Below, piece by piece: positions 6,655-30,207 of a DNA stretch of 32,000 bases. Positions within the stretch are counted from its first letter, which is position 1, and each line of letters begins with the position of its first letter. The stretch comes from Acaryochloris marina MBIC11017 (lineage in GTDB: Bacteria > Cyanobacteriota > Cyanobacteriia > Thermosynechococcales > Thermosynechococcaceae). The translations under genes and the position numbers were made by a program. The notes beneath the pieces were generated by a model. That model was not told the DNA's origin. It did no database searches and worked only from the letters and a program-made list of their open reading frames with translations. The stretch spans positions 1,950,001 to 1,982,000 of the forward strand of contig NC_009925.1 in assembly GCF_000018105.1 (NCBI RefSeq), in the 5' to 3' direction.

Positions 6655-7107
6655 TTAACTGGCTTGAGGCTTCACCAGAATGGCATCACCTTCTACTTTG
6701 ATGTCATAGCTTTCTAGCGGCTCAGAGGCAGGTCCTTTAGCAACAGCTCCATCCGGTGTATAGGTGGAACCATGGCAAGCACAGAAAATATCTTGAGAGT
6801 CCTGTTTCCAATCTACGGGGCAACCCTGATGGGTACATGTTGGATTAAGCGCATGAAGGGTATCAGCGTTCTTTGGATCTCTCACCACTAGAACTTTTTG
6901 GTTCCCTTTCAAGGTTTGCAGAATACGGCCATTTTTGTCTAAGTCTTGGGTCTGGCCCACCTTGATAAACCCACCTGGGGTCGCTTCAGCTTTAGGCGCT
7001 GGGGTTGAGGAGGTTGAAGTCCGGTTCGTACAGGCCCCAATCACAACAGAGACGATTCCTGAAATCCAACTTAAGGTCAACCATGACAAAACTTTTCGGC
7101 GGTTCAT
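6655..7107 (-). CDS. Small Rieske [2Fe-2S] protein (PetC3-like), probably a Tat-exported lipoprotein
   Basis: Rieske motifs CTHQGC...CACHGS lie about 17 residues apart. The N-terminus MNRRKVLSW...VVIGAC has a twin-Arg motif plus a lipobox-like Cys. At 150 aa its size matches small cyanobacterial Rieske paralogues. Confidence 0.85.
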   Translation of the reverse strand: MNRRKVLSWLTLSWISGIVSVVIGACTNRTSTSSTPAPKAEATPGGFIKVGQTQDLDKNGRILQTLKGNQKVLVVRDPKNADTLHALNPTCTHQGCPVDWKQDSQDIFCACHGSTYTPDGAVAKGPASEPLESYDIKVEGDAILVKPQAS

Positions 7108-7519
7108 ACTGAAATCTTAAGAAACGAGATCCACAATAGTTTACTAGCTGATGGGAGTTTCCCTTGAAAAATAATAGGGAATAAATACACACAGACTAGA
7201 ATTAGTTTGCCCATGCCAACGCTATAAACTGAACTTCAAAAACATTTATTTGTCGACCCAAAACAACCAATAATTGACGCTAAACTCTGTGAATCTCAGT
7301 ATAGACTTACATTTTGAGTTTATTACAAATAATTGACCTAACTCCCTTAAATTCCTATCATTGCGATATTTTTATTTACAAATATCTTGTTGAAAGAGAC
7401 CCATATTTGGGCAAACTAAGGGTTGGAGACAGAGTAGAATTATTGTTCTCGAAAGTCTTCTTTAACTCTTATGTAAAAAATGCATCAACGTTTAGAGAAA
7501 TGCTATCTCCAGGAGGGTC

Positions 7520-16843: not shown

Positions 16844-17111
16844 GCAGCGTCATTCAGCTGAGAAGGCATACTCGTTGGTTACCTCTGCCATTTCTTTCAC
16901 GCATTGAGAGCATGAATTGCAATCTCTTTCGTTATTTTCCAATGTGATATTTTGCTAGGCAACAACAAGCAAGAGCTTTCTCCCCACAGAACTGGAGGCC
17001 GGGGGCCAAATACAGATAATGTGTTCTTGCCCCAAGGTCTCACATACCTCATTCTTATCTTTTTCAAAGGCGTATCCCGAAGTTGGGGGAGTTGACTCTG
17101 GACACATCTAA

Positions 17112-17227
17112 GGCCCTCACCCCCAACCCCTCTCCCAAAGCTGGGAGAGGGGAGCTAGATCTCAACCTTGGGCTTGCATTTCTCCCCTTCGCCCAAGGTT
17201 GGGAGAGGGGGCTGGGGGGTGAGGGCC
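17112..17227. repeat. GC-rich nested palindromic (MITE/REP-like) intergenic element
   Basis: The outer arm GGCCCTCACCCCCAACCCCTCTCCCAA (17112-17138) pairs with TTGGGAGAGGGGGCTGGGGGGTGAGGGCC (17199-17227), with one mismatch and two 1-nt indels. An inner perfect 11-bp hairpin is CCCCTCTCCCA / TGGGAGAGGGG (17127-17137 / 17142-17152). A second perfect 11-bp inverted repeat is CAACCTTGGGC / GCCCAAGGTTG (17163-17173 / 17191-17201). Confidence 0.75.
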
Positions 17228-17307
17228 AAACCTCAAGACACTCTTCCCAAACTGTTGGATACAAGCTTTTTTAACTCCATACTCTGACCTCCCTTACAAG
17301 CCAACCT

Positions 17308-17856: not shown

Positions 17857-18010
17857 TTGAGGTGCAGTGTGTGCCAAAGATATTTGTGTTTATGAAAACA
17901 ATTGGATAAAGCGTGGCGAATGGCTGAGATTCACTTTAAATTCAGCTATTAGGTGATTTTTCTGCTGATTTTCTTGAGGATGGTGTGAGGTTCTTTTAGC
18001 GGGGAAAGGT

Positions 18011-20539
18011 ATGTCTTGGGAAGAAGCAGAGCAACGGATTCAAGGGGCTGCGAAGCAACAATCTAGAAGCCTTGATTTATCATATTTAGGACTAACAGAA
18101 ATTCCCGATGCGATCTCACAACTAAAAAACCTGCAAACGCTTTCCCTACAAGGGAATCAACTGACCACGATTCCCGATGCGATCTCACAACTAAAAAACC
18201 TGCAAACGCTTTCCCTACAAAGGAATCAACTGACCGCGATTCCCGATGCGATCTCACAACTAAAAAACCTGCAAACGCTTTCCCTACAAGGGAATCAACT
18301 GACCGCGATTCCCGATGCGATCGGACAACTGGTAAACCTGCAAACGCTTGACCTGCACGACAATCAACTGACGACGATTCCCGATACGATCTCACAACTG
18401 GTAAACCTGCAAGAGCTTGACCTACGCAATGATCAACTGACCACGATTCCCGATGCGATCTCACAACTGTCAAATCTTCAAAAACTTTATTTGCATGGGA
18501 ATGAATTGCTGAAAATTCCGGCTGAGATTCTAGGTTCAACATACGGCGATGTTCGATCTGGAGCAGAACCAGCTAAACCAAAAGACATTCTGGAATACCT
18601 TTTCCGCATCCAGAAACAAGCCCAACCTCTTAATGAAGCGAAATTGATTCTGGTGGGCTATGGTGCGGTTGGTAAAACCTCTCTGGTCAACCGATTGGTT
18701 CATCAAAGGTTTGATGCGAGTGAAACTAAAACTGAAGGCATTCAAATCACCGATTGGCCCCTGTATTTGAACGGCAATGAAGACGTCAAATTAAATGTTT
18801 GGGATTTTGGGGGGCAAGAAATTATGCACTCCACCCATCAGTTTTTTCTAACTGAACGAAGTTTGTATCTTCTTGTCCTCAACGGTCGCCAAGGCCATGA
18901 AGATGCAGATGCTGAGTACTGGCTCGAACTGATTCAAAGTTTTGGTGGCGACTCTCCCGTTATTGTTGTCCTCAACAAAGTTGAAGAACATCCTTTCGAT
19001 GTCAACCGCAGTGGCCTCAAGCAAAAATTCCCTAATATTAAAGGCTTTGTGCGTACGGACTGTGAAACTGAACGAGGTCTGGATGAACTCCGCCAAGTCA
19101 TTGAGCACGAAACAGATCGTCTCGAACATTTGCGCGATCCGTTTCCAGCTAGTTGGTTTGCCATTAAACAGCGTTTAGGAGACATGGAGGAAAATTACAT
19201 CTCCTTTGAGCACTATCGGAATATCTGCAACCAGAATCAAGAATCCGATCTAGACTCTCAAGATTCCCTAGCTGTTCATCTTCACAATTTAGGCATTGCT
19301 CTCAACTATAAAGATGATCCTCGTCTGAGAGATACCAATATCCTCAATCCTCTTTGGGTCACCAATGGCATCTACAAAATCCTCAACGCTCATGATTTGG
19401 CAGACCACAAAGGAGAACTAGATCTTGGCTGCCTTCCCCAACTGTTGGATCCTAAAAACTATCCTCGTCAGCGCCACGGTTTCTTAATGGAGCTAATGCG
19501 CAAGTTCGAGCTATGTTTCCCTTTTCAGGACAGTCAAGAGCGCTATCTCATTCCCGACCTACTTGATAAACAACAACCACTAGAAGCCGAAGACTTTATT
19601 CTCGAAGACTGCCTTAATTTTCGCTATACATACCCCATCTTGCCCGAAGGCTTGTTACCTCGCTTTATAGTTCGTACCCATGTCTTGAGTAGCAATACTC
19701 TTCGCTGGCGCACTGGTGTTATCCTCGATTTTGAAGGTAGCCGTGCTCTAGTAAAAGCTGACCGTCAAGACCGAAGTGTCAGTATCAGCATCACTGGCCC
19801 TAAAAATAAACGCCGTGAATTGTTGGGCATCATCCGTTATGACTTTGAGCACATCCACAACAATTTTAAATTTCAGCCTGAAGAAAAGATTCCGATTCCA
19901 AATCACCCAAAACTAACCTTCAGCTACAAAGATTTATTGGTGATGGAAGAACAAGGCTTAGTTAAGGTACCAAAAGTCATCAATGGGAAATTAATCCATC
20001 TAGAAATCAAGGAATTACTCAACGGTGTAGATCTAACAAAGCGACCGCAAACTTTAAGAGACGTTGAGCATCCATCAAAAGCTCTCCAACTCTTCTACAG
20101 CTACTCCCATAAGGATGAAGGTATTCGTGATCAGCTCGAAACACATCTCAAGGTGCTTCAGCGCAGGGGTCTTATTCAAAATTGGCACGACCGCAAGATT
20201 CTGCCTGGTACTGATTGGAAAAACGAATTAGACAGAAATCTTGAACAGGCCGACATTATCCTGCCATTAGTCAGTCCAGATTTTATCGCTTCTGACTATT
20301 GCTATGAAGTCGAAATGAGCCGTGCCAGAGACCGCCATGATGCCAAAGAAGCAATTCTACTCCCTATCCTAATCCGCCCTGTAGATTGGAACTCAACTTC
20401 CTTCTGTGATATTCAAGCCTTACCCAGTGATCTAAAACCAGTAACAAAATGGTCTGATAAAGATGATGCTTGGCTAAATGTCATGCAAGGTCTAAAGCGA
20501 GTTATTCAAGTGATTCAAAAAAATAAATCTCTTCAATAA
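18011..20539 (+). CDS. LRR-Roc-COR-TIR multidomain protein: a ROCO-type GTPase with a C-terminal TIR domain
   Basis: aa ~20-175 hold about 6.5 leucine-rich repeats of 23 aa (IPDAISQLKNLQTLSLQGNQLTT). aa ~208-370 form a Ras-like Roc GTPase: G1 GYGAVGKT (K222), G3 WDFGGQE, G4 LNKVE. aa ~375-625 are COR-like (FPASWFAIKQRL..., LIPDLL, LPEGLLPRFIVR). aa ~692-835 form the TIR domain (LFYSYSHKDE..., WHDRKILPGTDW, ADIILPLVSPDFIASDYCYEVEMSRA). Confidence 0.9.
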   Translation: MSWEEAEQRIQGAAKQQSRSLDLSYLGLTEIPDAISQLKNLQTLSLQGNQLTTIPDAISQLKNLQTLSLQRNQLTAIPDAISQLKNLQTLSLQGNQLTAIPDAIGQLVNLQTLDLHDNQLTTIPDTISQLVNLQELDLRNDQLTTIPDAISQLSNLQKLYLHGNELLKIPAEILGSTYGDVRSGAEPAKPKDILEYLFRIQKQAQPLNEAKLILVGYGAVGKTSLVNRLVHQRFDASETKTEGIQITDWPLYLNGNEDVKLNVWDFGGQEIMHSTHQFFLTERSLYLLVLNGRQGHEDADAEYWLELIQSFGGDSPVIVVLNKVEEHPFDVNRSGLKQKFPNIKGFVRTDCETERGLDELRQVIEHETDRLEHLRDPFPASWFAIKQRLGDMEENYISFEHYRNICNQNQESDLDSQDSLAVHLHNLGIALNYKDDPRLRDTNILNPLWVTNGIYKILNAHDLADHKGELDLGCLPQLLDPKNYPRQRHGFLMELMRKFELCFPFQDSQERYLIPDLLDKQQPLEAEDFILEDCLNFRYTYPILPEGLLPRFIVRTHVLSSNTLRWRTGVILDFEGSRALVKADRQDRSVSISITGPKNKRRELLGIIRYDFEHIHNNFKFQPEEKIPIPNHPKLTFSYKDLLVMEEQGLVKVPKVINGKLIHLEIKELLNGVDLTKRPQTLRDVEHPSKALQLFYSYSHKDEGIRDQLETHLKVLQRRGLIQNWHDRKILPGTDWKNELDRNLEQADIILPLVSPDFIASDYCYEVEMSRARDRHDAKEAILLPILIRPVDWNSTSFCDIQALPSDLKPVTKWSDKDDAWLNVMQGLKRVIQVIQKNKSLQ
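18101..18514 (+). repeat. Six tandem 69-bp units encoding the LRRs; the first three are near-identical at DNA level
   Basis: Units are phased at 18101, 18170, 18239, 18308, 18377 and 18446. Units 1-3 differ from each other by only 1-2 nt out of 69 by my direct comparison. Units 4-6 diverge progressively. Confidence 0.9.
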
Positions 20540-20779
20540 CCGCCAACGATATACAGGAAATCAGCAAGCACAGATGCAACGTAGAATCTGAGTAAGCCCT
20601 AACCTTTAACTGCTATTTTGATTGGGTCGAGAGTGTCGGAGTGGCATTGATGCTGCAATTCAGCCTCCTCTATCCATCGCACATCCTTGCATGGATGAAA
20701 GTCGTTAAATATATTTTCCCGATTCAGTCTAAGTTGCATCAAAGGTGGGGAAAGTCCAGTATGTGAATTTTTGAGACCT

Positions 20780-21229
20780 ATGTTGTCCTCCAATCAATTC
20801 CAGCCAGAATCTTCCGCTGTGCAGAGTTACCTCGGTATTCTCCAAGATATTATTACTCGGATGGCTAATAACAGCAGTAACTGTAAAACCTGGTGCATTA
20901 CGGTCGTTTCGGCAATTTTGGTAGTTATTGTTGATAAAAAACAACCTAGTTACGTCTTGATTGCTCTTATTCCTGTCCTATTATTCTTCTTCCTAGACAC
21001 CTATTACTTGGCTCTCGAAAGAGGTTTTCGAGATGTGTACAACGACTTTGTCCAAAAGTTACATAACAATGCTGTTACGACTCAAGATCTCTTTGTAGTG
21101 AGGCCCCTAAGAGACTTTTCACTCTACAAAACTATATTGAAAGCCGCATTCTCACCTGCTATTGCTCCCTTTTATGGAATTTTGACCCTAACCGCAGTCC
21201 TAGCCCACTCCCTAATTGTGAAGTCTTGA
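20780..21229 (+). CDS. Small hypothetical membrane protein with 3 predicted TM helices
   Basis: 149 aa from ATG 20780 (track start TTG 20771). An N-terminal amphipathic segment (SAVQSYLGILQDIITRMANNS) precedes the TM helices WCITVVSAILVVIV, YVLIALIPVLLFFFLDTYYLAL and PAIAPFYGILTLTAVLAHSLIV. It shares strand and low GC with the upstream ROCO-TIR gene. No family recognised. Confidence 0.55.
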   Translation: MLSSNQFQPESSAVQSYLGILQDIITRMANNSSNCKTWCITVVSAILVVIVDKKQPSYVLIALIPVLLFFFLDTYYLALERGFRDVYNDFVQKLHNNAVTTQDLFVVRPLRDFSLYKTILKAAFSPAIAPFYGILTLTAVLAHSLIVKS

Positions 21230-21303
21230 ACCTTTGCCTTTATCGCTTCATTAATATGCATCCACCTCAGCTTGAAACTTTCGCTTCCCCCCTACCTTGA
21301 AAA

Positions 21304-21817: not shown

Positions 21818-22915
21818 ATGCTCACCCAGAATCGGCAATCGAATCCGACCCGGCTCCCCCAACCCTTTATTCCCTACCGACCCAAATATTCACCCCTCAG
21901 CTGGATCAAGCGGAATGTCGTCGTTGCCAGAGCCTTTCTGGGGGCTCTCGCCATCGTCCTCAAATCAAGACGACAACAACAGTCCCTCCCCTTTGGGGCC
22001 TCTATAGAAATCACCGATCGCTGCAATGCGGGGTGTCATTATTGCTACGTCTATCCCTCAGACTGGAACCAAACCCAACGCGTCCGAGGGTATCTACAGC
22101 TTTCTCCCCCTGAGCATAAAGCCAAAGATCAAGCCATTTACCAAACCCTAGACCAGCTCTCGCGTCAAGGCATGGTCCTCGCCACCCTGGTCGGCGGTGA
22201 ACCCACCCTGGCACCTAAAGTGATTCAATATGCTGCCCGCAAATTCCCAGTCGTTTGGGTCGTGACCAATGGGTCATCCAAATTCCCTAAAGTGCCGCAT
22301 TCCGTTGTGTATAGCGTCAGTATTGATGGCCCTCCAGACCACCATAATCAAACCCGAGATCCCTTGGGGTTCTTTCAAAACCATGCCTATCAAGACCTGC
22401 ACGGGATGGCAGCCGCTATCGTCCGCAATATCAATGAATCTGAACGGGGTGCCTACGCCCACATTACCCTGACCCAATCCAGCCTCAAGTTATTTCCAGA
22501 GACCGTAGAATGGCTGGTCACCTCTATCACCAAACTCCGAGGCATTATGGTGTCTGGTGCAGCCACCCATTCTCCTGCAGATCCGAATACCCTAACCCTG
22601 GCCGATCGGCAAACCATGAAGGGGATGATTGAGACAGCGGCGGCAAAATATAGCTGGGACTTGTTTCCCTTTAACCAACCTGCAGTCAATGCCTACCTAT
22701 TTGATGCGCCCTTCGTCATTCAAGATCCCACGCAATGTACCGTGGCACGGCGAGTCACGAGTTTAGGCTTTGATGGAGCCAGCGTCGGTAAATGCATTCT
22801 GCGAGATGAGACGGACTGTCAGACCTGTGTGTGTAATCTGACCGGATTAATGCGAGGAGTAGCCACAGCGGATCGCCCTAGTTTGAAAGGACTCTATCAA
22901 GCCTGCTTAGGCTAG
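21818..22915 (+). CDS. Radical SAM enzyme of unassigned function
   Basis: The canonical CxxxCxxC cluster sits in IEITDRCNAGCHYCYV. The GGEPTL motif is LVGGEPTL. An additional C-terminal Cys cluster (C-x21-C-x8-C-x2-C-x-C; ...CILRDETDCQTCVCNL) may bind an auxiliary Fe-S cluster. No subfamily recognised. Confidence 0.8.
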   Translation: MLTQNRQSNPTRLPQPFIPYRPKYSPLSWIKRNVVVARAFLGALAIVLKSRRQQQSLPFGASIEITDRCNAGCHYCYVYPSDWNQTQRVRGYLQLSPPEHKAKDQAIYQTLDQLSRQGMVLATLVGGEPTLAPKVIQYAARKFPVVWVVTNGSSKFPKVPHSVVYSVSIDGPPDHHNQTRDPLGFFQNHAYQDLHGMAAAIVRNINESERGAYAHITLTQSSLKLFPETVEWLVTSITKLRGIMVSGAATHSPADPNTLTLADRQTMKGMIETAAAKYSWDLFPFNQPAVNAYLFDAPFVIQDPTQCTVARRVTSLGFDGASVGKCILRDETDCQTCVCNLTGLMRGVATADRPSLKGLYQACLG

Positions 22916-24802
22916 GGTGGCCTTGCTGAGATAACTGTGGTAACGTTCCTGCAATTGGTTTACACCCACCTTGCCAGTCCATAACTCCACCATGGTTTGG
23001 CCAAAGGCCCAAGCATCATCCTGAATCGAAGACGCAGTCTCTAGCAACAGGGGCCAGAGGGCTAAAAAGTCAAACACAGGATGGGCCTCGGGTTCAGCCA
23101 GCAACGTAAAGAGTTCATAGCCCATCTGCAATTTCCCCATAACAACGGGGGCCTGCTCAATGGGGAGCTGGGTTGCCAGGGCTGTTGCCAAGGCCGGAGA
23201 ACCTGTTGTCATCGTCGACAGAAATCCTAAAAGGGGGCTTTTCAGTAGGGCTGTGAGGCCCTGAGTCGTGCTCATTTGGGACGCATACTGGTTGATGATT
23301 TTGGCAGAAGTGGTGATACGGGTGGTGCGATCGCGCAAAAATCTTGCCATCCGGGCCTGCTTCGCCGGGTCAAATTCATCCACCATCGCTGCTGACAGTT
23401 CTGTTCCGCCCCAGGCTGGCCGATCTTGACTCGTATCGCCCGTGACCAGCGGCAAAATAACAGCCGAAACCTCCCCTAAAATCTCTTGGCGATAGGCAAT
23501 CGCTTCTCGAATCGAGGTCTCCTTGGGTTGCTCACCCGATCGCCAATCGTAGGGCGGGGACCATTCTCGAATAGGCCGGAGCCGATCCACCTGGGTGACA
23601 ATGCTAATCACGGGCAGATCGTCCACCTGAGTTTTAATCTCTTCTAAAAACGCCAGATCCATTTGTAAGGCCGGATCCGTGGCAGGTGTAACTAACAACA
23701 GCAGATCCGCCTCCGCTGCTTTCTCAATCACGGCTTGGCGTAAATCGTCTCTCCCACTTTGCTCATACCCCGGTGAATCCCAGAGGGTCAGCGTTTCGTC
23801 TAAATTATTCTTAAACCGATACGACTGCAGGGTATCCGTGCTGGGCAATACGTCTACGGCTGCCGTCTCTCGGCCAAATAGGGTATTCACCAAACTACTT
23901 TTACCCGCTCCCGTCCGTCCCACCAGCAGGACATTGAGGGGTGCCTGCTCTACCGCCTTGGCAGGCGCAGCTTCCGTAATAATTGCTTGTAGGGTTTGGG
24001 TCTCCGCTTCGGGCAGCTTCGGTTCCAGACTCTCCAACGAGCGGACCGCTTCACCACTGTAGAGGGCAATCGCTCGTTCGCCCAGAGCCTGTAGCGTCGT
24101 CTCTCGGACAATCTGACCCAAGTTTGCCAACAACTGTTGATTGGCTTGATTGCGATAGGTTTGTGTAGACGTGCGAGTCAAGGCCGCCACGGGATTAAAA
24201 ATCCATCGGGACCATTGCCATACCTTGACCGCAGTGCGGGCGGCGGGTTCTAGTTTTCGATAGGTTTCATAGGTTTCATAGGCCTGCCCCACTGTCACCT
24301 GCCCTAGCACCGGAGAGAGTTTTTGCATCCACTGATCCACATCATCCACGGTGCCCCGCAACAAACCATAGGCATCCGGAACATAGATATTTAGAAACGG
24401 ACGCTTAGTGGTGGGGTAGTAGACATGGGCAATGGCCTCAATCAACGTTTGGCAGCGGCGAAAAAACTGGGCCCAATCTTCCCAGGGCAAGACATCCTCT
24501 CTAGCTGCCACTAGAATCGTTTGGATTTCAGCTTCGGCCTGCTGCCGACGGGGTTCACTTGAAGATGTCTCTTCAGCCTGCTCTTGAATAAAGGCTCTGG
24601 CTTCCGCTGCAATCTGATCCGGCAGCCGCAGCCAGCGAACCAGCAAATACTGCCAGCCCAAAAACACTAAAATCACGATGGCCCAAATCCAACTCAGTCC
24701 CCACTGATGGATTTGTAACCCAGCCGCAGCCCCCAGAAATCCGAGCACGCTAACGACGGGTAGAGCCAAAACGACCCACTGCCAGACCTTGAGACGAATC
24801 AT
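22907..24802 (-). CDS. Membrane-anchored GTP-binding protein: N-terminal 2 TM helices, central MMR_HSR1-type G domain, C-terminal helical domain
   Basis: The TM helices are VVLALPVVSVLGFLGAAAGL and LSWIWAIVILVFLGWQYLLV. G1 is LLVGRTGAGKSSLVN, G3 is LWDSPGYE and the G4-like motif is VTQVD. The 3' end overlaps the radical SAM gene's 3' end by 9 nt (convergent). Confidence 0.8.
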   Translation of the reverse strand: MIRLKVWQWVVLALPVVSVLGFLGAAAGLQIHQWGLSWIWAIVILVFLGWQYLLVRWLRLPDQIAAEARAFIQEQAEETSSSEPRRQQAEAEIQTILVAAREDVLPWEDWAQFFRRCQTLIEAIAHVYYPTTKRPFLNIYVPDAYGLLRGTVDDVDQWMQKLSPVLGQVTVGQAYETYETYRKLEPAARTAVKVWQWSRWIFNPVAALTRTSTQTYRNQANQQLLANLGQIVRETTLQALGERAIALYSGEAVRSLESLEPKLPEAETQTLQAIITEAAPAKAVEQAPLNVLLVGRTGAGKSSLVNTLFGRETAAVDVLPSTDTLQSYRFKNNLDETLTLWDSPGYEQSGRDDLRQAVIEKAAEADLLLLVTPATDPALQMDLAFLEEIKTQVDDLPVISIVTQVDRLRPIREWSPPYDWRSGEQPKETSIREAIAYRQEILGEVSAVILPLVTGDTSQDRPAWGGTELSAAMVDEFDPAKQARMARFLRDRTTRITTSAKIINQYASQMSTTQGLTALLKSPLLGFLSTMTTGSPALATALATQLPIEQAPVVMGKLQMGYELFTLLAEPEAHPVFDFLALWPLLLETASSIQDDAWAFGQTMVELWTGKVGVNQLQERYHSYLSKATLA

Positions 24803-28707: not shown

Positions 28708-30207
28708 ATGAAGCATCGACCAACAAAGTTAGTGATGACGGTAGCTTTATGGCTCGGTTCACTAACCTTGATCGCAATTAGTACCCTGTCTCCATTTACG
28801 TTTAATCTGCATGACCTTAATCTCAAAGACGCCATCAGCTTAGGGATCAGGAATCCCACCAATCCCATCGATATAGTGGCGAATATCATTCTCTTTCTCC
28901 CCTTAGGGTTCAGTAGTTATGCCCTGACGCTCAGACTTCCAAGACGTAAAACCGTGCTCTGTCTAATGAGTATCGGTGTGCTCAGCACTTCAATATCCAT
29001 TCTGGTTGAAACAGCACAACTCTTTCTCCCAGGCCGATTTCCAACCTTATCCGATATCGTTTTCAATGGATTCGGCGGTTTTTTAGGGGGCTTGTTTGCG
29101 CTACAGCTATCCATTCCAAAAGACAAAAGATTTCCGACCAAACTCAACAAAACGGTTTGTCTGATCGCATTTCTGGGGTATTTTCTGTCCATCTATTTAG
29201 GACTCTTTCTATTTACCTGTCAAATCCAGATCAGTAACTGGCAAACGTCTTATCCCTTGACCATTGGAAATACAGCAACCGGGGACAATCCATGGCTAGG
29301 TAAAGTATCCAATATTCTCCTATTTGATTCAGCATTAACATCAGACAGTATTGGACACTTACTTAACTTCAAACTCGATTCAACGAGTTACAAGTCGTTA
29401 GCATTTTCCTGCCTATTAGAACCAGACATCATAGAAAGCAATTATTTAGCTTCAGAACTACACTTATGCAAAAACCCTACACCTCAAAAAAAGCTACATC
29501 CTCAGGCAGACAATGATGTCTGGTATTTAGTTGAAAGCAGTAATCTTGACTTTATCAACCGCATAAAATCCAACAAGGCTTTTACCATTGCCCTCAAAAT
29601 CAAGTCTGAATTCAATCGGGGGTTTGGCACAGTTTTAACGATTGCTGAAGATATAGACCATGTCAACTTTATCTTAGGAATTCAAGCCAATCGACTGACT
29701 AGCCGTATCCGTTTTCCACTCTCTGGAGTGTCAGGCAAAACTCCTGAATTGGTGATACATGATAAAAATCTAAACTCGATAGATCAAACTATCGTGATTG
29801 TATATGACAGCATTTCCTTTCACGTTTACCAGAACCATCTGAATCAAGAGAAACAAGCCTCGTTACTCGCCGATCTATACTTTACACAGCCTCTGTCTAA
29901 AATCTATCGAGAATGGCGACTAGAACTATTTAATATCGACTTACATAAATGGTTGTTTATTGCCTTTACTTTTACACCGGCAATCGTCTTATTCGAGCTA
30001 CTGCAAGCTACGGGAAAAATCAATTCATCTAGAGAAATATCGCAATGTGTGATTGGCCTCTCGATATTAGCTGCGCTCATATCTAGAGTCTATACAAGTA
30101 GCCTCAATATTTGGATATTTGAATGGATGGAAGTGTTAGCCATTCTCCTATTCTGCTGGTTTGGCACCAAACTTTACTTCATCACGCTAGAGAAGTATCA
30201 GCTTTAG
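28708..30207 (+). CDS. VanZ-like membrane protein with a central LamG/concanavalin-like segment and C-terminal TM helices
   Basis: VanZ motifs are ANIILFLPLGF and VETAQLFLPGRFPTLSDIVFNGFGGFLGG. The central PWLGKVSNILLFDSALTSDSI and FTIALKIKSE...TIVIVYDSISFHVYQN resemble LamG strands. I prefer ATG 28708 (MKHRPTKL..., then a TM helix) over the track's GTG 28624. Confidence 0.7.
   Translation: MKHRPTKLVMTVALWLGSLTLIAISTLSPFTFNLHDLNLKDAISLGIRNPTNPIDIVANIILFLPLGFSSYALTLRLPRRKTVLCLMSIGVLSTSISILVETAQLFLPGRFPTLSDIVFNGFGGFLGGLFALQLSIPKDKRFPTKLNKTVCLIAFLGYFLSIYLGLFLFTCQIQISNWQTSYPLTIGNTATGDNPWLGKVSNILLFDSALTSDSIGHLLNFKLDSTSYKSLAFSCLLEPDIIESNYLASELHLCKNPTPQKKLHPQADNDVWYLVESSNLDFINRIKSNKAFTIALKIKSEFNRGFGTVLTIAEDIDHVNFILGIQANRLTSRIRFPLSGVSGKTPELVIHDKNLNSIDQTIVIVYDSISFHVYQNHLNQEKQASLLADLYFTQPLSKIYREWRLELFNIDLHKWLFIAFTFTPAIVLFELLQATGKINSSREISQCVIGLSILAALISRVYTSSLNIWIFEWMEVLAILLFCWFGTKLYFITLEKYQL

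Follow-up and report, generated by a model that had tools for sequence, protein, structure and literature searches.

We analysed a two-gene cassette in a 32,000-nucleotide (nt) stretch of Acaryochloris marina MBIC11017 DNA (GCF_000018105.1, contig NC_009925.1, positions 1,950,001 to 1,982,000, forward strand), hereafter called the window. The first gene encodes a bona fide ROCO protein (LRR-Roc-COR) of 842 amino acids (aa) that carries a C-terminal TIR domain and is here called ROCO-TIR; the second, adjacent and on the same strand, encodes a small protein with three transmembrane (TM) segments, which belongs to the TIR-partner family PDC-M50A. Together, the two make up a hypervariable cassette that occupies a conserved slot and is not part of a defence island, and they recur together and co-diverge in a cyanobacterial subclade. 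We propose that the cassette would encode an NLR-like intracellular conflict sensor, probably directed against phages, together with a membrane partner, in a Thoeris-like arrangement, and we give this reading about an even chance of being correct. The ROCO-TIR gene had been singled out in an earlier prediction made without database searches, referred to below as the original prediction.

A ROCO protein with a C-terminal TIR domain

The predicted 842-aa open reading frame (ORF), with its ATG start, is real, and its product is 100% identical to the NCBI entry "COR domain-containing protein [Acaryochloris marina]". The LRR, Roc, COR and TIR domains assigned to it in the original prediction were all recovered with Pfam, above the curated cut-offs: LRRs at approximately aa 19-170, Roc at aa 211-324 (9.5e-30), COR-A (1e-43), COR-B (4e-37), and TIR_2 at aa 695-795 (1.4e-13). 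Roc is followed directly by COR, the arrangement that characterizes ROCO proteins, according to Pfam, PDB alignments and Foldseek. Among solved Rocos, the Roc-COR segment matched MbRoco2 (4wnr, 8e-94), CtRoco (3dpu/6hlu, about 1e-70) and LRRK2 (about 1e-26); the CtRoco alignment extended through aa 470 of the query segment, and Foldseek also returned 3dpt and 3dpu. The full-length AlphaFold2 model had a mean predicted local distance difference test score (pLDDT) of 80.4, with the LRR-Roc-COR structure of CtRoco (6hlu) as its closest structural match (Foldseek 9e-38).

In this model the LRR solenoid, which is presumed to be the ligand sensor, formed a regular beta/alpha repeat with a pLDDT above 90. 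A linker of about 60 aa had been predicted before the TIR domain; only a short disordered stretch was observed there, and the remainder belongs mostly to COR-B according to Pfam and AlphaFold2. No STAND or AAA domain was found in the protein with Pfam, NCBIfam or PADLOC, and the switch is Roc-COR. The analogy with NLRs, in which Roc-COR takes the place of the STAND ATPase, is sound.

More than 100 full-length homologues with the same Pfam set were found at 53-78% identity. With one genome per GTDB species, 587 relatives were distributed patchily across phyla, including Cyanobacteriota, Acidobacteriota, Planctomycetota, Verrucomicrobiota, Bacteroidota, Chloroflexota, and others. Some homologues in the set P0039, P0104, P0057 are 1216-1421 aa long and carry AAA/SMC-like domains (PF13304, PF13175, PF13476, PF02463 or PF13401/PF14516), and others carry HTH domains (PF13560/PF01381). 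The original prediction knew of no characterised system with this architecture. Such proteins had, however, already been described computationally: in section 15 and Fig. 6D of their paper, Kaur, Iyer, Burroughs and Aravind (eLife 2021, PMC8195603) present LRR-AP-GTPase(Roc)-COR proteins as predicted counter-invader systems, with rapidly evolving N-terminal LRRs and, as C-terminal effectors, TIR plus about 24 other domains. ROCO-TIR has the order given there, with LRR, AP-GTPase, COR and a C-terminal effector. No experimental work on ROCO-TIR or PDC-M50, no paper mentioning PDC-M50 and no defence phenotype for any family member was found in the literature searched. The architecture is thus described in silico and experimentally uncharacterised.

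The Roc domain had been credited with intact G1, G3 and G4 motifs. This holds for G1 (GYGAVGKT, aa 216-223, with K222 encoded at 18674-18676) and G3 (DFGGQ, aa 265-269), but G4 (NKVE, aa 322-325, 18974-18985) is non-canonical compared with the NKID found at the aligned position of MbRoco2 and CtRoco. Across the 120 closest homologues, the fourth G4 residue was K, E, Q, T, H, G, S, N, A or R, and so is unconserved, and was usually followed by Glu (NKxxE[H]); distant Rocos often retain NKxD. From these alignments, the guanine-specificity Asp of G4 is lost or unconserved in the ROCO-TIR clade, and NKVE may confer an altered or weak nucleotide specificity. The canonical set of G1, G3 and G4 is incomplete owing to G4, a deviation that does not decide membership of the ROCO family.

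In the TIR domain, E766 and E768 had been put forward as candidates for the catalytic Glu. E768 (codon 20312-20314) was invariant across 54 TIR domains, down to 29% identity, whereas E766 was unconserved; also invariant in this alignment were S697, Y698, D702, D727, S755, and S761. In a PDB profile search, E768 aligned with the Glu of Cat1 ("CWD-EL") and with that of the plant TIR AT1G72930 (AtTIR; "CLD-EL"), and it sits on a predicted helix (aa 762-777) in the AlphaFold2 model, as the catalytic Glu of enzymatic TIRs does. The domain thus retains a catalytic-type Glu; lack of the catalytic Glu and of the BB-loop, together with absence of NADase activity in vitro, had been named beforehand as grounds for dropping the prediction. 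The profile matches in PDB comprised Cat1, TLRs, AtTIR, AbTIR, RPP1, L6, ROQ1, RUN1, TIR-SAVED, and TIR-STING. The PADLOC ThsB model PDLC00420 (ThsB1) matched the ROCO TIR at 4e-54; the M50B model PDLC04688 did not match it, whereas it did match the stand-alone TIRs of loci L002 and L005.

The best solved sequence relatives include the TIRs of TLR1/2/6/15, as would be expected if the domain had no enzymatic role and served, like the TIRs of animal TLR/MyD88 signalling, as a protein-protein adaptor for the recruitment of further factors. We consider such a role highly improbable in view of the invariance of the catalytic-type Glu in the 54 homologues, the matches to the NADase/cyclase TIRs Cat1, AbTIR, plant TIRs, TIR-SAVED and TIR-STING, the strength of the ThsB model match, and the lack of a conserved TIR- or Death-like adaptor partner nearby.

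Table 1. Features of the cassette, in window coordinates (position 1 is the first nucleotide of the window)
Feature	Position	Strand	Basis
LRR-Roc-COR-TIR gene (842 aa)	18011..20539	+	ATG start; ORF call, Pfam, PDB alignment, AlphaFold2, Foldseek
N-terminal helix and LRR solenoid (aa 1-175)	18011..18535	+	Pfam LRR_8, LRR_4, LRR_14; AlphaFold2
69-bp tandem array encoding LRR units (5.3 copies, 89% matches)	18101..18468	+	TRF
Roc GTPase domain (aa 208-372)	18632..19126	+	Pfam Roc; MbRoco2/CtRoco alignment; motif census
COR-A (aa 379-518) and COR-B (aa 533-672), dimerisation/transmission module	19145..20026	+	Pfam, CtRoco alignment, Foldseek
Disordered linker between COR-B and TIR (aa 676-689)	20036..20077	+	pLDDT below 50 (AlphaFold2); 33% identity to sister strains
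TIR domain (aa 692-842)	20084..20536	+	Pfam TIR_2; PADLOC ThsB model; 54-sequence alignment; PDB profile search
Intergenic spacer ROCO-TIR/M50A (240 nt)	20540..20779	+	No terminator- or promoter-like consensus site found
M50A gene (149-aa three-TM protein)	20780..21229	+	PADLOC PDC-M50A 2.8e-31; AlphaFold2; topology; TIR adjacency
Hypervariable two-gene cassette (upstream spacer, ROCO-TIR, 240-nt spacer, M50A, downstream spacer)	~17857..21303	+	Lies between conserved NUDIX and MAPEG genes

M50A, a small membrane protein found beside TIR genes

The three-TM ORF downstream of ROCO-TIR, already noted in the original prediction, is also real; what had been missed is its membership of PDC-M50A. Its product matched all four PADLOC PDC-M50A models, the best being PDLC04686. 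The mechanically called ORF begins at a TTG at 20771, and the lengths of homologues favour the ATG at 20780. Hydropathy and the positive-inside rule gave three TM segments with the N-terminus inside, and in the AlphaFold2 model (pLDDT 90) TM1 and TM2 make up the turn of a long helical hairpin, after which comes the third TM helix. Four residues, R27, K36, Y76, and E80, were invariant in 130 diverse family members and lie near the cytosolic membrane face. The family comprised 4668 clusters (50% identity, E-values up to 1e-3), almost all of them stand-alone proteins of about 145 aa, and no TIR-M50A fusion was seen when the top 150 representatives were ranked by length and the first 10 inspected.

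Affiliation of M50A to SLATT, DUF2270 or another Pfam family was discarded, as no match reached threshold. For PF10028 (DUF2270), the domain of ThsF, the window protein and six homologues gave no match at E-values up to 10. In the wider family, DUF2270 was the commonest weak Pfam match (17 of the 130 members, best 9e-4, all below the gathering score). A remote homology between M50A and ThsF, which likewise has three TM segments, is possible and is put forward as a lead only. Weak, near-full-length matches to PF24838, the "8xMP octameric membrane protein family", were also observed in 7 of the 130 members (best 0.0013); L178 3019-3453 is among the M50A members. Relatives of the C. botulinum M50A have no precomputed Pfam label. 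At type V ThsB matches on Bacillus/Priestia plasmids, followed as a route to ThsF sequences, no effector ORF was found after the TIR gene.

A census was made of 80 metagenome loci retrieved with an M50A profile. A TIR ORF lay immediately upstream of M50A, on the same strand and separated by a few nucleotides, in 67 of these loci; the TIR was immediately downstream in three and elsewhere in the locus in one. Only three loci had full flanks and no TIR, the six others being truncated contigs. M50A is therefore a dedicated TIR partner that nearly always has a TIR gene as its direct neighbour (70 of the 80 loci). It was paired with at least five TIR architectures: stand-alone ThsB_TIR (160-200 aa), a mini-TIR of about 130 aa, GAP1-N1...TIR_2, TIR_2-PAS-LuxR, and ROCO-TIR; DUF5763-TIR was also found among the partners. 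In L162 (1255-4440), a 911-aa GAP1-N1...TIR_2 protein is encoded 23 nt upstream of M50A, and L171 (2837-5468) contains a trio formed by TIR_2 (367 aa), Rhodanese (277 aa) and M50A, beside DUF3854, Prok-E2_D, and XisI.

TIR-M50A pairs are also carried by mobile elements. On Dehalococcoidia and Burkholderiales contigs, M50A directly follows a stand-alone ThsB_TIR on integrative, restriction-modification or conjugative islands, and the partner TIRs match PADLOC PDC-M50B. A TIR-M50A pair was present on 130 plasmid records (Klebsiella, 40; Escherichia, 36), 82 of them conjugative. It adjoins RelE/ParE in an IncC/IncR plasmid and in Providencia pNDM15-1091, shows a 4-nt overlap between its genes in a Pseudanabaena plasmid, and adjoins an integrase in Vibrio tectiviral elements (14 kb, prophage); C. 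botulinum p6CSt also carries M50A. Enterobacteria have the reversed order, the TM gene preceding the TIR gene. The plasmid and prophage M50A genes (L177, L178, L183, L180) always adjoin a TIR gene related to type V/IX Thoeris TIRs; in the pairs from C. botulinum, Vibrio, E. coli, and Providencia, the TIR shares 31-50% identity with those Thoeris TIRs. According to a preprint (10.64898/2025.12.03.692087), type V/IX Thoeris ThsB TIRs produce 3'cADPR, and the three-TM effector ThsF (DUF2270) has been validated for type V Thoeris. No support was found for equating M50A with the "3TM" effectors described by Yirmiya et al.: the TIRs linked to 3TM are at most 36% identical to those of M50 loci, and none of the six scaffolds tested is listed by these authors, whose screen discarded NLR-like and stand-alone TIR proteins.

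Taken with its topology, this company makes M50A a candidate membrane effector or TIR partner. The window contains the M50A component of PDC-M50 and lacks the M50B component, a ThsB-type TIR, no M50B-type TIR ORF being detected in its six-frame ORF set.

A hypervariable cassette in a conserved slot

Compared with the syntenic contig L001, nucleotide identity in sliding 100-nt intervals dropped at about 17850, from 89-98% to 50-79%, and recovered to 93-96% at about 21300. This low-identity block has sharp edges, which enclose both genes with their spacers and nothing else. At the protein level, the flanking genes were 93-99% identical between the window and L001, as opposed to 70% for ROCO-TIR and 71% for M50A. 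The same housekeeping slot is occupied in L001, L167, and L169. Within ROCO-TIR, the LRR (60-63% identity to sister strains), the linker (33%) and the TIR (59-68%) diverged most, and Roc and COR-A least.

The LRR region is encoded in part by a 69-bp tandem array, which would be a substrate for changes in LRR copy number. Five LRR motifs were counted in the window protein, eight in L001 and 10 in L167, and the near-identical L174, L175, and L176 had 15, 16, and 21, respectively. An antisense ORF of 159 aa (18063-18542, minus strand) with its own repetitive translation lies within the array; almost certainly, it owes its existence to the 69-bp repeat and is not a gene. With its fast divergence and unstable LRR copy number, the cassette behaves like a fast-evolving conflict gene, a pattern typical of antagonistic co-evolution; this accords with the conflict sensor proposed in the original prediction.

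The same prediction interpreted the locus as a horizontally acquired islet of low GC content, which is only partly right. The dip is real, with a GC fraction of 0.438 for ROCO-TIR and 0.409 for the M50A gene, compared with 0.499 for NUDIX and 0.567 for MAPEG, a range of 0.48-0.57 among neighbouring genes, and an average of 0.481 over the window, but it is smaller than the hand counts had suggested; moreover, the same slot is occupied in three Acaryochloris-type genomes, where it holds a hypervariable cassette. Other dips, as deep or deeper (0.36-0.40), occur at 501-1000, 1501-2000, 7001-7500, and 29001-30000, the last in a VanZ/LamG-like gene. An association with a defence island was not upheld by a PADLOC check of the window: its genes around the cassette are housekeeping genes with only generic domain matches, and a defence island was ruled out on this basis. 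No Rfam family was found in the window.

These data also bear on the possibility that ROCO-TIR is a physiological signalling or regulated-cell-death ROCO, acting, for example, in stress-induced death or in self/non-self recognition within cyanobacterial populations, whose TIR would provide an NAD+-consuming or signalling output in response to an endogenous cue and not to a phage. That three Acaryochloris-type genomes carry the gene at the same chromosomal position, surrounded by housekeeping genes, accords with this explanation, as does the connection drawn by Kaur et al. (PMC8195603) between such systems and multicellular/social bacteria and apoptosis-like processes. We nevertheless regard it as improbable, since the cassette diverges far faster than its flanks, with an unstable LRR copy number, since the M50A family occurs on plasmids, prophages and integrative elements beside ThsB, toxin-antitoxin and restriction-modification genes, and since the phyletic distribution of the ROCO-TIR family is patchy.

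ROCO-TIR and M50A were found paired in three genomic contexts. The first is that of the window and of the syntenic Acaryochloris-type contigs L001 and L169. The second is that of L168, with unrelated flanking genes and a 4-nt overlap within the pair. In the third (L174-176), M50A lies 66 nt after a ROCO-TIR of 1106-1280 aa, next to a DUF5615/DUF433 pair; M50A of this type was present in 68 blocks of the contig index, and 24 contigs were read. Some homologous ROCO-TIR and M50A pairs adjoin toxin-antitoxin genes, and stand-alone TIR-M50A modules reside on mobile elements. In a neighbour-joining tree without support values, all paired loci fell within one cyanobacterial subclade, which also has members without M50A.

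Several observations weigh against the proposal of a sensor with a membrane partner. M50A was present within 5 kb in none of about 54 TIR-bearing ROCO loci of other genomes, nor was any other neighbour conserved at these loci; because of this absence, M50A is not required by the ROCO-TIR family, and its role as a general ROCO-TIR partner was ruled out. In A. marina CP064923.1 (L167), ROCO-TIR occupies the same slot, and M50A and part of MAPEG have been lost. The gap of 240 nt in the window contrasts with 0-30 nt in canonical TIR-M50A pairs, and neither promoter or terminator signals nor any evidence for or against co-transcription were found for this spacer. The window TIR lies outside the M50B and type V/IX ThsB clades, and its BB-loop region (aa 726-735) was modelled at low confidence, with a pLDDT below 50 at aa 727-732. 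The missing G4 Asp of Roc puts a classical GTP switch in doubt. For M50A itself, no structural relative was found in PDB (best E-value about 0.6, TM-score below 0.5) and no nucleotide-binding domain was recognisable. Finally, the surroundings are those of housekeeping genes.

The first of these observations, together with L167, the long spacer and the membership of the ROCO TIR in a subfamily other than that of the usual M50B partner, would fit a self-contained sensor-effector that kills by NAD+ depletion, like TIR-bearing Avs and NLR-like proteins, M50A being either independent or the relic of an inserted TIR and M50A module minus its TIR. We consider this explanation unlikely, although it is the one that has to be weighed most closely against the partner arrangement. 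It does not readily account for pairing in three genomic contexts, in one of them with a 4-nt overlap typical of translational coupling, or for the inclusion of both genes in a single sharp divergence block. Loci with M50A and no TIR gene beside it are very rare; here ROCO-TIR is its sole TIR neighbour, and no M50B-type TIR ORF was detected in the six-frame ORF set of the window.

Other observations concern the surroundings of the pair. In L167 (8881-9465), a natural deletion has left only a MAPEG fragment (aa 27-86, 83% identity) between ROCO-TIR and the radical-SAM gene. An inverted repeat of 28 nt, complementary at 24 of its positions, links the TIR coding region (20192-20219) with M50A codons 4-12 (20789-20816), which is unlikely by naive chance; a regulatory RNA was rejected, as the repeat is unconserved in L001, L168, L174, and L169. 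Upstream, the HPPK-NUDIX intergenic region (16900-17300) is 33-55% identical to that of L001, between proteins that are 95-98% identical. Both of its strands have ORFs, of 63 and 66 aa, which overlap (17064-17274), and the region may be a small element of variable or repeat type. Downstream (21818-24802), a radical-SAM gene (365 aa) and a gene for a 631-aa dynamin-like GTPase are arranged tail to tail with a 9-nt overlap. They bear a weak PADLOC likeness to pVip (1e-10, core only) and LeoBC/LeoA (4e-14) and, as they are 93-96% conserved in L001, are probably core and not defence genes.

Proposed mechanism and significance

We propose that the variable LRR solenoid would bind an invader-derived ligand and that binding would alter the nucleotide state or the conformation of Roc-COR. 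In the C. tepidum Roco, the nucleotide state governs a cycle between monomer and dimer. A comparable change could bring the TIR domains into the head-to-tail contacts that an NAD+-cleaving active site, built around E768, requires. Most members of the family have no partner gene, and their output would probably consist of NAD+ depletion by the TIR and nothing more. In the Acaryochloris-type subclade, the TIR product (a signal derived from ADP-ribose, ADPR) or the activated TIR itself might additionally trigger M50A, which would oligomerise, breach the membrane and abort infection in the manner of Thoeris effectors. Both links in this chain, between the ligand and TIR activation and between the TIR and M50A, are inferred; for this subclade, comparison with Thoeris types II, V, and VII makes a TIR-triggered membrane effector the most likely role of M50A. 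A more specific version, in which a ThsB-like, signal-making TIR would be the output of an LRR-Roc-COR switch lacking the guanine-specificity Asp, and its signal would open M50A three-TM effectors that are possibly very distant relatives of ThsF, seems doubtful at present, though worth stating.

The cassette shares parts with several known systems. CtRoco, M. barkeri Roco2, and LRRK1/LRRK2/DAPK1 have an LRR-Roc-COR core homologous to that of ROCO-TIR in sequence and fold; CtRoco and MbRoco2 lack a TIR and keep NKID, and the human proteins use a kinase output, whereas the window protein combines NKVE with a TIR. Thoeris types II, V (ThsF/DUF2270, three TM) and VII (SLATT) likewise place a TIR gene beside a small multi-TM protein, and the window TIR matches the ThsB model. 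However, the Thoeris ThsB is small, while the TIR carrier here is an 842-aa ROCO, and M50A stays below the Pfam threshold for DUF2270 and SLATT. With regard to PADLOC PDC-M50, itself only a candidate system, M50A is a clear member, but the TIR is of the TIR_2 type, is fused to LRR-Roc-COR, and does not match M50B. Avs/AVAST, bNACHT, the P4-satellite TIR-NLR, and plant TNLs follow the same logic of repeat sensor, nucleotide switch and TIR. These STAND sensors use a STAND ATPase, whereas the window protein uses a Ras-like Roc GTPase with COR, in the order sensor-switch-TIR. In plant TNLs, the order is TIR-switch-sensor.

The LRR-AP-GTPase-COR-effector proteins of Kaur et al. 2021 have an identical architecture, including the TIR effector. 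They were described computationally and protein by protein; section 15 and Fig. 6D of that paper mention neither a three-TM partner nor a strain-level hypervariable cassette, nor that the G4 Asp is lost. The link to PDC-M50A, the hypervariability of the cassette, the degenerate G4 and the identification of E768 all appear to be new.

ROCO proteins are intensively studied owing to the part of LRRK2 in Parkinson's disease; how Roc-COR couples input to output is debated, and bacterial Rocos that can be assayed are scarce. If our proposal is correct, ROCO-TIR would offer a tractable bacterial model of how Roc-COR couples ligand binding to an effector domain. A TIR NADase or synthase output would give a clean read-out of the switch, in the form of NAD+ loss, an ADPR-type product or cell death, the more so with a linked membrane effector. 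Were a diffusible signal involved, this would be the first LRRK2-type Roc-COR to gate an enzymatic immune output via a second messenger. A GTPase-switched class of receptors would then join the STAND-type NLR-like sensors of bacteria, and the PDC-M50 candidate, whose membrane component is widespread on enterobacterial conjugative plasmids, would be tied to the expanding Thoeris family. In Acaryochloris, hypervariability in a fixed slot may provide a natural system for the diversification of receptors.

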